In this document: positions 38,565-45,050 of the stretch, one piece after another
Layout: each line of letters opens with the position of its first letter
Position numbering within the stretch: the first letter of the stretch is position 1
Assembly (NCBI GenBank): GCA_965216325.1
Contig: OZ244160.1
Span: 511,809-575,808, forward strand
DNA length: 64,000 nucleotides
Direction: 5' to 3'
Source: Coraliomargarita sp.
GTDB lineage: Bacteria; Verrucomicrobiota; Verrucomicrobiia; Opitutales; Coraliomargaritaceae
Notes under the pieces: generated by a model
Seen by the model: the letters and a program-made list of their open reading frames with translations, nothing else
Databases searched by the model: none
Told to the model about the DNA's origin: nothing
Program-made: the position numbers and the translations under genes

Positions 38565-40470
38565 GTGTGCCGAGCATGCGCTCGATGTAAAAGTGGTTAA
38601 AGTCCGCTATAGTAAGAACCTAATCATAAAATGAAAGAACTATTACCAGATGCCAAGGGCGTTGTCGTGAGGCAGGGTCTGAAGGAAGGCTATGGGAAAG
38701 CTGCGAGCTGATGAACAAAAACTGCATAGAAGGCCGACGTGGTCTGGTGAGCTGGCACCACACAGCGAAACCGCTAGGTTCAGCCACGCAGGTAAATGCA
38801 GCAGTTGTGCAGCGGAGCATCGAGTGCTTACCTCGGGAGGCCTCAGCGAGTGGCATGGGTTGGCTTAAAGGTGTCAATCAAGCCCATGCACCTGAGTCAG
38901 TAATGACACAGGCGGCACTGGTTGAGGAGTCAGCAGCGAGCATAGTAGTCATGGAACCGCGAGCCATGAGTAGGTCGATAGGCCGAAGAGCATGGAGGTC
39001 TCGAACGTGATGAAGGCTCAAACCGTATATGGGCAGTCCGACCCGCAGGCAGGTTCACCTCTCACTGGCACAGACCCGTGTCGAGAGTTGGGCGATGTTT
39101 GTGCAGGGAAGCATGGGGCTGCCGAGCAAGAACTACTGGAGTTGATGCTGGACCGCGCTAATCTGAACGCAGCTTGGCGGCGTGTGCGCAGCAACGGTGG
39201 AGCTTCTGGCATCGACGGTATGTCGATCGAGGACTTTCTGCCGTTTGCGCGCGAGCACTGGTCGCGGATCGAGACTCAACTGAAAGAGGGAACCTACCAG
39301 CCAGCCGCGGTGCGCCGCGTCTGGATACCGAAGGACAATGGGGAGAAGCGCCCACTGGGCATCCCCACGGTGTTGGATCGTGTGATCCAGCAAGCCATCG
39401 CTCAGGTAATTGCGCCGATCTTTGAGGCACAGTTCAGTGAGCACAGCTTCGGCTTTCGTCCAGAACGCCGAGCTCATGACGCAGTCAAGTCGATCCAAAG
39501 CGCAGCCGCCAAAGGTCACGTGTACGCGGTCGATTGTGACCTGAAGTCATTCTTCGACACGGTCGATCATCGTGAATTGATGCAGCGTCTAGCGCGCCGG
39601 ATCAAAGACGGGCGCGTGTTGCGCCTGATCTACCGCTACCTGAAAGCAGGCATCCGCTTGCCCGATGGCAACACCGAGGCAACCGCCGAGGGGGTGCCAC
39701 AGGGGGGACCGCTCAGTCCGCTACTGGCCAATATCATGCTCGATGACCTCGACCATGAACTCGAACAACGCGGGCACCGTTTCGCACGCTACGCCGACGA
39801 TTTTGTTATCGTCGTCCAAAGCAAGCGAGCGGCTGAGCGCGTGATGCACAGCATCAGTGGCTTCATCGAAGCGAAGCTCAAACTGATCGTGAATCGCGAG
39901 AAAACGAAGGCGGGTCGGCTGACACAGTGCAGCTTCCTCGGATTCGTGATCTCGCCCAAGCGTATCCGCTGCTTGGATACCAAACTGCACACGTTCAAGA
40001 AGACCATCCGTCAAATCACCTGTCGCAGTTGGGGCATCTCCATGGAGGAACGCCTCGAACGTCTACGACTGTATGTGAATGGCTGGCTGGGTTACTTCGC
40101 TATCGGTGTGCCGTTCAAGGATATCCGCAGCATGGATCAATGGCTACGAAGGCGTGTGCGCTTGTGCTACTGGAAACAGTGGCGTTTACCGCGCACGCGC
40201 TACCGCAAGCTACGCGCGCTTGGGATCAACCCGAAGACGATTAAGCAGGCTAGTCGTTGTCGAAAAGGCTACTGGCGCTGCAGCAAACTGCGAGTGGTCA
40301 GTATCGCGATGAACAACCAATGGCTCGCCGAACAAGGCTGCCCCTCAATCAAAGAACAGTGGCTCAAACTCTGCTATCCAAACGGATAGCCCTAACGGAA
40401 CCGCCGTGCTACGGAGCCGTATGGCCGGTGGTGTGGGGGCGGGAGTCAGTGATGGCTCCCGCTACCCGAT
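38565..40470 (+). mobile_element. Group II intron, copy 1 (class C / attC-targeting type), 1906 nt
   Basis: The 5' end is GTGTG and the 3' end is ..CGAT. An RT-maturase ORF lies in domain IV, with a domain V/VI-like region after the ORF. It is near-identical to 43145-45050. Confidence 0.8.
38992..40389 (+). CDS. Group II intron reverse transcriptase/maturase (no endonuclease domain)
   Basis: RT blocks are present (RVWIPKDNGEKRPLGIPTVLDRVIQQA, GVPQGGPLSPLLANI, RYADDFVIVV), followed by an X/maturase region (YVNGWLGYF). The start may be ATG 39010. Confidence 0.9.
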   Translation: MEVSNVMKAQTVYGQSDPQAGSPLTGTDPCRELGDVCAGKHGAAEQELLELMLDRANLNAAWRRVRSNGGASGIDGMSIEDFLPFAREHWSRIETQLKEGTYQPAAVRRVWIPKDNGEKRPLGIPTVLDRVIQQAIAQVIAPIFEAQFSEHSFGFRPERRAHDAVKSIQSAAAKGHVYAVDCDLKSFFDTVDHRELMQRLARRIKDGRVLRLIYRYLKAGIRLPDGNTEATAEGVPQGGPLSPLLANIMLDDLDHELEQRGHRFARYADDFVIVVQSKRAAERVMHSISGFIEAKLKLIVNREKTKAGRLTQCSFLGFVISPKRIRCLDTKLHTFKKTIRQITCRSWGISMEERLERLRLYVNGWLGYFAIGVPFKDIRSMDQWLRRRVRLCYWKQWRLPRTRYRKLRALGINPKTIKQASRCRKGYWRCSKLRVVSIAMNNQWLAEQGCPSIKEQWLKLCYPNG

Positions 40471-43144: not shown

Positions 43145-45050
43145 GTGTGCCGAGCATGCGCTCGATGTAAAAGTGGTTAAAGTCCGCTATAGTAAGAACC
43201 TAATCATAAAATGAAAGAACTATTACCAGATGCCAAGGGCGTTGTCGTGAGGCAGGGTCTGAAGGAAGGCTATGGGAAAGCTGCGAGCTGATGAACAAAA
43301 ACTGCATAGAAGGCCGACGTGGTCTGGTGAGCTGGCACCACACAGCGAAACCGCTAGGTTCAGCCACGCAGGTAAATGCAGCAGTTGTGCAGCGGAGCAT
43401 CGAGTGCTTACCTCGGGAGGCCTCAGCGAGTGGCATGGGTTGGCTTAAAGGTGTCAATCAAGCCCATGCACCTGAGTCAGTAATGACACAGGCGGCACTG
43501 GTTGAGGATTCAGCAGCGAGCATAGTAGTCATGGAACCGCGAGCCATGAGTAGGTCGATAGGCCGAAGAGCATGGAGGTCTCGAACGTGATGAAGGCTCA
43601 AACCGTATATGGGCAGTCCGACCCGCAGGCAGGTTCACCTCTCACTGGCACAGACCCGTGTCGAGAGCTGGGCGATGTTTGTGCAGGGAAGCATGGGGCT
43701 GCCGAGCAAGAACTACTGGAGTTGATGCTGGACCGCGCTAATCTGAACGCAGCTTGGCGGCGTGTGCGCAGCAACGGTGGAGCTTCTGGCATCGACGGTA
43801 TGTCGATCGAGGACTTTCTGCCGTTTGCGCGCGAGCACTGGTCACGGATCGAGACTCAACTGAAAGAGGGAACCTACCAGCCAGCCGCGGTGCGCCGCGT
43901 CTGGATACCGAAGGACAATGGGGAGAAGCGCCCACTGGGCATCCCCACGGTGTTGGATCGTGTGATCCAGCAAGCCATCGCTCAGGTAATTGCGCCGATC
44001 TTTGAGGCACAGTTCAGTGAGCACAGCTTCGGCTTTCGTCCAGAACGCCGAGCCCATGACGCAGTCAAGTCGATCCAAAGCGCAGCCACTGAAGGTCACG
44101 TGTACGCGGTCGATTGTGACCTGAAGTCATTCTTCGACACGGTCGATCATCGTGAATTGATGCAGCGTCTAGCGCGCCGGATCAAAGACGGGCGCGTGTT
44201 GCGCCTGATCTACCGCTACCTGAAAGCAGGCATCCGCTTGCCCGATGGCAACACCGAGGCAACCGCCGAGGGGGTGCCACAGGGGGGACCGCTCAGTCCG
44301 CTACTGGCCAATATCATGCTCGATGACCTCGACCATGAACTCGAACAACGCGGGCACCGTTTCGCACGCTACGCCGACGATTTTGTTATCGTCGTCCAAA
44401 GCAAGCGAGCGGCTGAGCGCGTGATGCACAGCATCAGTGGCTTCATCGAAGCGAAGCTCAAACTGATCGTGAATCGCGAGAAAACGAAGGCGGGTCGGCT
44501 GACACAGTGCAGCTTCCTCGGATTCGTGATCTCGCCCAAGCGTATCCGCTGCTTGGATACCAAACTGCACACGTTCAAGAAGACCATCCGTCAAATCACC
44601 TGTCGCAGTTGGGGCATCTCCATGGAGGAACGCCTCGAACGTCTACGACTGTATGTGAATGGCTGGCTGGGTTACTTCGCTATCGGTGTGCCGTTCAAGG
44701 ATATCCGCAGCATGGATCAATGGCTACGAAGGCGTGTGCGCTTGTGCTACTGGAAACAGTGGCGTTTACCGCGCACGCGCTACCGCAAGCTACGCGCGCT
44801 TGGGATCAACCCGAAGACGATTAAGCAGGCTAGTCGTTGTCGAAAAGGCTACTGGCGCTGCAGCAAACTGCGAGTGGTCAGTATCGCGATGAACAACCAA
44901 TGGCTCGCCGAACAAGGCTGCCCCTCAATCAAAGAACAGTGGCTCAAACTCTGCTATCCAAACGGATAGCTCTAACGGAACCGCCGTGCTACGGAGCCGT
45001 ATGGCCGGTGGTGTGGGGGCGGGAGTCAGTGATGGCTCCCGCTACCCGAT
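43145..45050 (+). mobile_element. Group II intron, copy 2 (class C / attC-targeting type), 1906 nt
   Basis: It has the same length and ends as copy 1. By eye only a handful of substitutions differ, for example GCCGCCAAAGG versus GCCACTGAAGG. Confidence 0.8.
43572..44969 (+). CDS. Group II intron reverse transcriptase/maturase (copy 2)
   Basis: 465 aa. In the track translations it differs from copy 1 only at AAKG versus ATEG. Confidence 0.9.
   Translation: MEVSNVMKAQTVYGQSDPQAGSPLTGTDPCRELGDVCAGKHGAAEQELLELMLDRANLNAAWRRVRSNGGASGIDGMSIEDFLPFAREHWSRIETQLKEGTYQPAAVRRVWIPKDNGEKRPLGIPTVLDRVIQQAIAQVIAPIFEAQFSEHSFGFRPERRAHDAVKSIQSAATEGHVYAVDCDLKSFFDTVDHRELMQRLARRIKDGRVLRLIYRYLKAGIRLPDGNTEATAEGVPQGGPLSPLLANIMLDDLDHELEQRGHRFARYADDFVIVVQSKRAAERVMHSISGFIEAKLKLIVNREKTKAGRLTQCSFLGFVISPKRIRCLDTKLHTFKKTIRQITCRSWGISMEERLERLRLYVNGWLGYFAIGVPFKDIRSMDQWLRRRVRLCYWKQWRLPRTRYRKLRALGINPKTIKQASRCRKGYWRCSKLRVVSIAMNNQWLAEQGCPSIKEQWLKLCYPNG

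Follow-up and report, generated by a model that had tools for sequence, protein, structure and literature searches.

To our knowledge, group IIC introns of the attC-homing kind (IIC-attC introns) are the only retroelements that home to the recombination sites of integrons. The locus described here lies in a 64,000-nt stretch of Coraliomargarita sp. (assembly GCA_965216325.1, contig OZ244160.1, positions 511,809 to 575,808 of the forward strand), which we call the window and from whose first letter all positions are counted. A first-pass annotation had described two near-identical introns of 1906 nt, which we designate copies A and B of intron X, each inserted in an attC site. A third intron, Y, absent from that account, occupies 40471–42367 and adjoins copy A directly downstream. 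We conclude that copy A probably sits between nucleotides 1 and 2 of Y, so that the two would form a twintron at attC site A.

Intron X copy A probably interrupts intron Y after its first nucleotide

Intron Y ends at 42367 with ...GGCUACUCGAU and is 92.5% identical over 1898 nt to an intron of the metagenome locus L024. Y-like introns elsewhere (L024, L026a, L026b, and L027–29) all read G/TATGCCCGGCATG, with the slash after the G; at these four independent outside junctions, G/UAUGCCCGG aligns with GUACG and GUGUG in such a way that the G falls on G1 of GUACG (class 1 integron introns and Tichowtungia) and of GUGUG (X). In the window, Y reads TATGCCCGG from 40471 onward, directly after the last base of X; the G that it lacks there stands at 38564, just before X. 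Removal of X in silico restored GUAUG, and removal of both introns gave GCGACTGG/TTCTACC, with the 9-mer CGACTGGTT that is common to attC sites B and D. We regard the explanation as a whole, with copy A nested between nucleotides 1 and 2 of Y, as quite probable at the level of sequence. If it is true, an empty allele of attC A would read ...CTGGTTCTACC.

In the history that we propose, Y (1898 nt) would have entered attC A first, at ...CUGG/UU, with its exon-binding site 1 (EBS1) CCAG pairing with the intron-binding site 1 (IBS1) CUGG. X (1906 nt) would have spread later and recently, to at least three copies in the genome. It would have entered attC B at ...UGGU/U, a site with U at +1 and with IBS1 UGGU as the partner of EBS1 ACCA (the GT/T register), and also the occupied attC A, in which the hairpin and CUGG were intact and G1-U2 of Y would have imitated GT/T. 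The insertion between nucleotides 1 and 2 of Y would thus be at the same distance from the hairpin as in site B, and UGGG/U at this point would give three of the four EBS1 pairs plus the preferred +1 U; the true exon/Y boundary (CUGG/G) offers no pairing to ACCA. X would have to splice out before Y regains its 5' splice site, so that splicing would be sequential. As read from the junctions, the order of insertion is shown to be Y first and X second, with the reverse order excluded. Insertion of Y after X was considered and rejected: EBS1 of Y has no complement in the 3' end of X, and G1 of Y lies upstream of X.

The best-surviving alternative, which we nonetheless hold to be distinctly unlikely, is a plain tandem: attC A would end with G38564, Y-type introns would start with UAUG, and X would have inserted exactly at the exon/Y junction. 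The EBS1 loops contain CCCAG or CCAAG, so that the tandem register with an exonic G also pairs, and empty sites in C. algicola read CGACTGGAT, which makes an exon ending in GG possible under this reading; tandem insertion upstream of a resident intron has moreover been demonstrated by experiment for a IIB1 intron (PMC12584367). Three features of the sequence speak for an intronic G instead. Only with the G counted as intronic can the opening 14 nt of Y be aligned base by base to GUACGCCCAGCAUG (class 1), GUACGCCUGGCAUG (Tichowtungia), and GUGUGCCGAGCAUG (X); with an intronic G the healed site A carries CGACTGGTT, the 9-mer of B and D; and attC E, which reads CCTTG/TTGGGT, has a single G. Group II introns begin with G, and a Y-type intron starting with UAUG would depart from this.

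EBS1 and IBS1 covary across four target variants

In an alignment of the 5'-most 330 nt of X and Y with those of their relatives and of three class 1 integron introns, the EBS1 hairpin fell in one column block. Each EBS1 loop is complementary to the four bases 5' of its intron. Thus, X and an X-like intron from Opitutaceae (L002) have the loop GCACCACA with EBS1 ACCA and follow IBS1 ...TGGT; Y in the window has GCCCAGGA with CCAG and follows ...CTGG; the Y-like introns of C. algicola and L027 have GCCAAGGA with CAAG and follow ...CTTG; and the class 1 introns have GCACAAGA with ACAA and follow ...TTGT. This covariation over four target variants confirms the assignment of EBS1. Class C introns have as their target a hairpin, an IBS1 of 3–4 nt and an IBS3 of 1 nt, with no IBS2; in keeping with this, EBS1/IBS1 complementarity and covariation hold over all four intron types.

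X shares with the class 1 introns its place of insertion, GT/T in the R'' box of the bottom strand (TGGT/T at site B). Its IBS1, TGGT, differs at one position from the TTGT of the published IIC-attC register TTGT/T (IBS1/IBS3; PMC7923331). Y-type introns and a related Tichowtungia intron are inserted one base earlier, at G/TT (CTGG/TT for Y). The +1 base was T at nine of ten junctions, and also in the three class 1 controls, L033, L035, and L036. The X copy in L033 lies at ...CGCCTTGT/T (CCTTGT/T), the classical TTGT/T target, yet has EBS1 ACCA; from this we conclude that X tolerates IBS1 mismatches, as far as target sequences tell.

X and Y are divergent group IIC introns

The boundaries, lengths, GTGTG start, and CGAT end that had been proposed for the two X copies proved exact to the base (Table 1); both copies in fact end in CCCGAT, so that the RNA reads GUGUG ... 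GAU. The copies differ at 8 positions (intron nt 365, 524, 700, 910, 944, 946, 947, and 1827; 99.58% identity), which bears out their near-identity, and three of these differences, within 4 nt, account for the only two amino acid changes between the encoded proteins, A173T and K174E.

The 465-aa reverse transcriptase/maturase without endonuclease domain described before was likewise recovered. The intron-encoded proteins (IEPs) of both X and Y gave RVT_1 and GIIM as their only Pfam matches, scored above the cut-off of NCBIfam TIGR04416, and have YADD; no endonuclease or HNH domain was found in either by Pfam. The true start of the copy A protein may be the ATG at 39010. In a PDB search, the closest solved relatives of the X IEP were the GsI-IIC reverse transcriptase (RT; E 4e-125) and the Eubacterium rectale IIC RT (E 2e-102), both of which we take to be class C, and RT fragments from Roseburia (R. 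intestinalis) and E. rectale matched at E ~1e-74. Scores were far lower for LtrA (IIA; 2.5e-46) and the 6me0 maturase/RT (2.2e-34), and in our trees all sampled IEP relatives formed one group versus LtrA. By these similarities the X IEP is established as a class C protein, and the ribozyme features agree.

Both X copies match RF02001 (group-II-D1D4-3) in Rfam at 126.6 bits (E ~1e-25 each), with a sub-threshold match to RF01998, and Y matches RF02001 at 116.1 bits (40561–40730) and RF01998 at 47.9 bits (40794–40906); bona fide class 1 integron introns yield the same pattern. We folded the 3' 76 nt of X and Y together with a bona fide class 1 integron intron as control, and the control gave the same fold. 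Domain V of X has the CGC triad, a G.U pair, and an AU bulge, resembling the bona fide class 1 IIC-attC introns, and in domain VI an A bulges out 7 nt before the 3' end (A-CCC-GAU). The termini of X also conform to the class C pattern (5' GUGYG and 3' AY, with the CGC triad and AY bulge of domain V). Taken with the GsI-IIC similarity and the ACCA–TGGT pairing at copy B, these features uphold the assignment of X to class C that had been made from the letters.

One of the eight differences falls in a conserved element. At 43509 copy B has T, where copy A (38929), Y, and the relatives have G, within the conserved GAGGAGUCAGCAG (domain II/III region, RF01998); with this change the RF01998 score drops from 28.8 bits in copy A to 26.2 bits in copy B. 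The T may be a slightly deleterious mutation private to copy B.

Y likewise folds domains V and VI, and the bulged A again lies seven bases from the 3' end; its IEP is 46% identical to that of X. It departs from the class C pattern in its GUAUG 5' end and in having AGU for the CGC triad, both of which are kept in five Y-like loci. In domain V of this lineage (42296–42329 in the window; L024, L026, and L027), AGU occupies the triad position, with an A opposite the G; X and the class 1 introns have CGC. As AGU recurs in all five Y-like loci recovered, it is on comparative grounds a lineage trait rather than decay. The window copy of Y has ACG at 40882–40884, where a 96%-identical homologue (L024, protein P0131) starts its IEP at ATG; the frame is open from 40495, with further in-frame starts at TTG 40930 and ATG 41014. 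Expression of the Y IEP from the window copy is therefore uncertain.

The IIC-attC lineage has been defined by behavior and by a monophyletic IEP clade with 100% bootstrap support (Leon et al. 2010, PMC3001079). The behavior is seen here: both introns lie in the attC bottom strand, opposite to cassette transcription, at R''. As references we used three class 1 integron introns, each checked to lie antisense, with aadA/blaVIM/blaIMP on one side and qacEdelta1 on the other; the tree did not include the curated N.e.I1, G.s.I1, and B.h.I1. A first, smaller neighbor-joining tree of IEPs left the deep nodes without resolution. In a 30-taxon neighbor-joining tree, X, Y, a clade containing Tichowtungia, and the class 1 introns grouped together with 40% bootstrap support, and GsI-IIC with introns of Chloroflexota and Actinomycetota metagenome-assembled genomes (MAGs) formed a separate clade with 100% support. 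Placement of X and Y inside the published IIC-attC clade is compatible with this topology. The nearest relatives of X are in Puniceicoccaceae and Opitutaceae MAGs, and a scan of genome contigs gave relatives at 74–76%.

Two intermediate relatives are also antisense among small minus-strand open reading frames (ORFs). One locus with this arrangement, in Tichowtungia aerotolerans (CP047593, L036), holds a IIC intron whose IEP is 51% identical to that of Y; its upstream flank has an attC-like hairpin ending in ...CAGTGG/GUACG, and a 50-aa fragment with a weak match to Phage_int_SAM_4 (integrase N-terminal domain) lies 1.3 kb away. The combination suggests a decayed integron in Kiritimatiellota.

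The hairpins and the cassette array

Upstream of both X copies is a hairpin with loop GGCGCAGCA, followed by CGACTGGN. The first-pass annotation had taken such palindromes for attC sites and had put both copies in the context of this hairpin, a short motif, and a T. The upstream part of that context stands at both copies; at copy A the T is nucleotide 2 of Y, into which this copy is nested.

We searched the window with a covariance model (CM R1) trained on six attC bottom strands from C. algicola, the Opitutaceae MAG locus L002, and the metagenome contig L027, with the window itself excluded from training. At E<1 its only matches in the 64 kb were sites A, B, D, and E, all on the plus strand between 38.5 and 46.0 kb and all within a block of low G+C content. 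With introns removed in silico, the reconstituted site B and site E fold like a class 1 attC control, with an R box (xxxxAAC/GTTxxxx), spacers that stay unpaired, and a bulged L stem that ends in a terminal loop. A home-made scan for AAC...GTT hairpins was dropped as non-specific (25 matches across the G+C-rich window), and the model built on foreign attC sites was used instead. Site D, already noted as an unoccupied target-like site, has the same 10 nt before the X insertion point as the occupied site B and is, judged by its sequence, a perfect and still empty X target.

The same family of hairpins accompanies an integron in C. algicola (CP138858, locus L026). There, a 471-aa protein passes the TIGR02249 "integron integrase" model at 326 bits (cut-off 265), and its gene diverges from a run of small minus-strand ORFs that contains two plus-strand Y-like introns and a yefM/yoeB cassette. 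The C. algicola Y-like IEP is 77% identical to the Y IEP of the window, and the cassette is 76.6% identical to window positions 37956–38518. Next to this cassette is an ORF-less remnant of ~260 nt (L026:5240–5502) that has kept a 5' end like that of Y together with domain VI and the 3' end (...GGCTACTCGAT/TGGGTC); given the homologous yefM/yoeB cassettes, in each of the two genomes this cassette neighborhood bears an intron or what is left of one. By these comparisons together the hairpins are shown to be attC sites.

We consider it very improbable that the hairpins are terminators or other palindromes and that X and Y are ordinary terminator-targeting IIC introns. Most IIC introns do insert after intrinsic terminators (PMC4424553), but no T-run follows the hairpins here, and the introns are antisense to all flanking genes rather than downstream of and co-oriented with them. 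The fact that an integron integrase is missing from the 64-kb window and the 25 unspecific matches of the naive AAC...GTT scan would suit terminators; against this, the same hairpin family flanks cassettes beside the TIGR02249 integrase in C. algicola and forms arrays in L002, the ends have boxes resembling RYYYAAC/GTTRRRY, with unpaired spacers and bulged stems, and the content is that typical of cassettes, with a toxin–antitoxin pair and small ORFs of unassigned function.

The flanking minus-strand ORFs are indeed cassette-like (the YoeB/YefM pair, a 5'-nucleotidase, and small ORFs without a family), and with the introns on the plus strand and the cassette ORFs on the minus strand the introns are antisense to the cassettes, as had been proposed. 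Without its intron, the ORF at 45026–45973 would read through all of attC B to a stop at 43078 and encode 329 aa; copy B replaces its last 22 codons with 8 intron-encoded ones.

No integron integrase was found in the 64-kb window by tblastn with IntI1 or the C. algicola IntI, nothing being better than E 0.4. A cluster of attC sites without an integron integrase is termed a CALIN (Cury et al. 2016, PMC4889954), the criterion being at least two attC sites on one strand with no intI nearby; with four plus-strand matches of the model and no intI within 64 kb, the array is a CALIN by this definition. The host belongs to the Verrucomicrobiota, a phylum in which integrons were already known, not to the Proteobacteria. 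The low-G+C cassette block has at its left edge an IS1380-family transposase gene (34322–35692, minus strand; NF033539 145.9 bits, below the 180-bit cut-off; Pfam DDE_Tnp_1_4), a possible cause of the separation or loss of intI. At 37652–37751, between an EF-hand ORF and a small ORF, two 21-nt arms, GGTTCGCCCCAAAGACATCGG / CCGATGTCTTTGGGGCGAACC, form a perfect inverted repeat around a 58-nt spacer; the attC covariance model gave no match there.

Table 1. Positions of introns, intron-encoded proteins, attC sites, and cassette ORFs in the window
Feature	Position	Strand	Details
yefM/yoeB toxin–antitoxin cassette adjoining attC A, antisense to introns	37956–38494	-	Pfam YoeB_toxin 4.6e-38, PhdYeFM_antitox 2e-23
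attC A, bottom strand; 5' exon of Y	38504–38563	+	R' box GCCGAAC, L-box stem, loop GGCGCAGCA, then ...GCGACTGG; CM R1 38504–38568, 25.5 bits, E 1.8e-4
Putative G1 of intron Y, split from the rest of Y by X copy A	38564–38564	+	5'-end homology with Y-like introns elsewhere
Intron X copy A, group IIC, 1906 nt	38565–40470	+	EBS1 ACCA 38757–38760; domain V 40400–40432; branch A 40464
IEP of X copy A, 465 aa; RT and maturase (X) domains, YADD, without endonuclease domain	38992–40389	+	Pfam RVT_1 4.5e-42, GIIM 1.3e-15; TIGR04416 397.9 bits
Intron Y nt 2–1898, second, different group IIC intron	40471–42367	+	EBS1 CCAG 40658–40661; domain V 42296–42329; branch A 42361
Y IEP open frame; RT and X domains, YADD, without endonuclease domain	40495–42288	+	Start codon uncertain
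attC A R'' remainder TTCTACC, 3' exon of Y	42368–42374	+	Both introns removed: GCGACTGG/TTCTACC
Two small cassette ORFs between the X copies, function unassigned	42456–42692 and 42819–43070	-	ORF calls
attC D, unoccupied	42699–42803	+	Ends CTCGACTGGT/TGGCA; CM R1 19.9 bits, E 0.006
attC B, bottom strand; 5' exon of X copy B	43085–43144	+	R' box TGCCAAC, stem, loop GGCGCAGCA, then ...CTCGACTGGT; CM R1 43085–43148, E 0.04
Intron X copy B, group IIC, 1906 nt	43145–45050	+	EBS1 43337–43340; branch A 45044
IEP of X copy B, 465 aa	43572–44969	+	Identical to database protein P0001
Cassette ORF, 315 aa, last 8 codons within X copy B	45026–45973	-	ORF call
attC B R'' remainder	45051–45057	+	Joined to 5' exon: GT/TGGGT, matches GTTRRRY
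attC E, intron-free, same attC family	45984–46038	+	GCTAAC...GCGCCTTGTTGGGT; CM R1 34.2 bits, E 8e-7

Mobility of X and shuffling of cassettes

The similarity between copies A and B runs from the first intron base to one shared T past the last; none of the upstream adjoining bases is identical, and the flanks are otherwise unrelated except for the short CGACTGG motif. Identity that starts and ends with the intron implies that the intron itself is what is repeated, rather than a duplicated segment. A third variant of the 465-aa X IEP (Y to H) is encoded on the same 3,064,510-bp contig as the window IEPs, so the genome has at least three X copies. X copies also occur in unrelated public runs (L033, Logan SRR16282460; L034, DRR337547) with 11–12 differences from copy A, and that of L033 (11 differences) lies in a different attC site. 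Relative to these outside copies, A and B carry four private changes each, which fits recent and independent insertion. From the homology that ends at the intron ends, the third IEP variant, and the outside copy in another attC, we conclude that the X copies most plausibly arose by retromobility. That they instead reflect DNA-level duplication, gene conversion, or an assembly artefact, as direct repeats 4.58 kb apart, three of eight differences clustered within 4 nt (a possible conversion tract), and metagenome contigs with identical intron and 5' flank but differing 3' flanks (repeats of a kind that can mislead assemblers) might suggest, is the least credible alternative of all, because identity starts and stops at the intron termini while the flanking attC stems differ, each copy has its four private substitutions relative to L033 and L034, and every junction is a correct IBS1/IBS3 target.

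Class C introns insert by reverse splicing into single-stranded DNA with a primer from the replication fork (PMC4424553). By analogy with this class C biology, X and Y would reverse-splice as ribonucleoproteins into the folded single-stranded bottom strand of attC and, having no endonuclease domain, would prime cDNA synthesis from the replication fork. Being antisense, they would not be spliceable from cassette mRNA and should block read-through transcription.

The direct X copies bracket Y and two cassettes; if the two copies recombined, a 4.58-kb block would be deleted or excised. Three ENA metagenome contigs (L027, L028, and L029) have 1500 nt of upstream sequence and a Y-like intron of 1922 nt in common, at 100% identity, and are unrelated from the first base past the intron 3' end. 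They may result either from recombination between intron copies, re-pairing one attC with different ORFs, or from assembly chimeras at the repeat. As proof of intron-mediated cassette shuffling we rejected these contigs, since they are possible chimeras at a 1.9-kb repeat.

A broader role can be imagined, which we rate as unlikely: in integrase-less arrays of the Planctomycetes–Verrucomicrobia–Chlamydiae (PVC) group, attC-homing IIC introns, which find their target by the hairpin, would serve as the shuffling machinery, piling into occupied sites as twintrons and providing, through nearly identical copies lying in different attC sites, portable homology that re-pairs attC sites with other ORFs or deletes or excises cassette blocks. 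Leon and Roy reportedly put forward a model of intron-mediated cassette formation in which IIC-attC introns are cassette builders. If the broader role were real, L027–L029, with one attC-plus-intron unit and three unrelated ORFs, would be products of such shuffling, and the cassette-formation model would be directly observable.

Weight of the evidence and significance

Several points weigh against our interpretation. At the nested junction, the IBS1 of copy A is mismatched at -1, and EBS1 complementarity fits both registers (CCCAG with CUGGG); the assignment of 38564 to Y rests on 5'-end homology and the near-invariance of G1, not on an empty-site allele. EBS3, which the first-pass annotation had proposed to map along with EBS1, could not be placed by covariation because +1 is U almost everywhere, and PMC7161350 has nothing on EBS3; the EBS1 part of that proposal succeeded, with ACCA pairing to TGGT. 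The proposed Rfam check of domains V and VI failed, in that RF00029 gave no match in X or Y even at E<=1, while class 1 controls pass at 47–49 bits; since both introns give normal domains V and VI on folding, the miss is in the light of these predicted folds a matter of divergence and not of absence. The proposed RT phylogeny did set the grouping with class 1 introns apart from GsI-IIC, but with a bootstrap value of only 40%. Outward sigma-70-like promoters (Pout, which in the IIC-attC lineage lie in domain I or II) were not above chance, their counts lying below the shuffle expectation with a consensus that may not be that of the host phylum; the scan gave none in domain I of X and one 9/12 match in Y, at 40874–40847. 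Finally, splicing, mobility, and all steps of the mechanism are inferred from sequence.

None of the outcomes that had been named in advance as fatal to the attC-homing account was found: the IEP does not fall outside class C, a class C domain V and EBS–IBS pairing are present, and the boundaries did not shift. The likeness to proteobacterial integrons drawn at that stage applies to the behavior of the introns and not to the host.

The homing of IIC introns to attC is itself known behavior, and nothing known is overturned by this locus. What it adds is a verrucomicrobial CALIN as host, two divergent lineages with covarying EBS1/IBS1, and a probable heterologous twintron formed after nucleotide 1. 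It brings attC homing into Verrucomicrobiota and into two IEP lineages, which share only ~46% identity with each other and with the clinical class 1 introns, and it supplies a natural covariation series (ACCA/TGGT, CCAG/CTGG, CAAG/CTTG, and ACAA/TTGT). Insertion after the first nucleotide of a resident would mean that the point of entry is set by distance from the attC hairpin plus ~3 bp of pairing, which would be useful for understanding and retargeting IIC introns.

Comparison with known systems

The closest counterpart by neighborhood is the C. algicola integron (CP138858, L026), which shares the attC family, the homologous yefM/yoeB cassette, and Y-like introns antisense in attC. It differs in having an intact integrase and Y-like introns of the EBS1 CAAG/IBS1 CTTG type, with no X intron and no nesting.

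By behavior, the counterparts are the IIC-attC introns of class 1 integrons (S.ma.I2, E.c.I7, and Kl.pn.I1 types; PMC3001079). X and Y resemble them in their class C ribozyme, in an RT/maturase without endonuclease domain, in antisense insertion at the R'' box of the attC bottom strand, in the position of the EBS1 loop (GCACAAGA in class 1 versus GCACCACA in X), and in the Rfam pattern over domains I–IV; X also shares the GT/T register and the +1 T. In contrast, the IEPs of X and Y are only 46–47% identical to theirs, IBS1 is TGGT (X) or CTGG (Y) rather than TTGT, Y sits one base earlier (G/TT), and the setting is a chromosomal CALIN of Verrucomicrobiota, here without resistance genes. X and Y also fall below the Rfam model for domains V and VI, and a P1out-like promoter was not detected in them.

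GsI-IIC of Geobacillus stearothermophilus has the closest solved IEP (50% identity over the trimmed alignment), with the same domain layout, and likewise uses a short IBS1 and an upstream hairpin. GsI-IIC and other terminator-targeting IIC introns lie downstream of genes, after terminators and in the sense orientation, whereas X and Y lie in attC hairpins and are antisense.

Twintrons are known from Euglena, Methanosarcina, and Trichodesmium, including bacterial and archaeal cases (reviewed in PMC4424553). Tandem copies of EcKTE56.groEL arose by re-insertion upstream of a resident IIB1 intron (PMC12584367), and a "second group II intron" is recorded upstream of the IIC-attC intron of Shewanella putrefaciens (PMC3001079, Table 3). 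As in these cases, the 5' exon target at attC A would have outlived the first insertion, with the first bases of the resident serving as 3' exon for the newcomer. The arrangement inferred here differs in that the newcomer belongs to another IIC lineage, that it entered after nucleotide 1 of the resident and not at its boundary or in its ORF, and that the attC hairpin would be the target shared by both.

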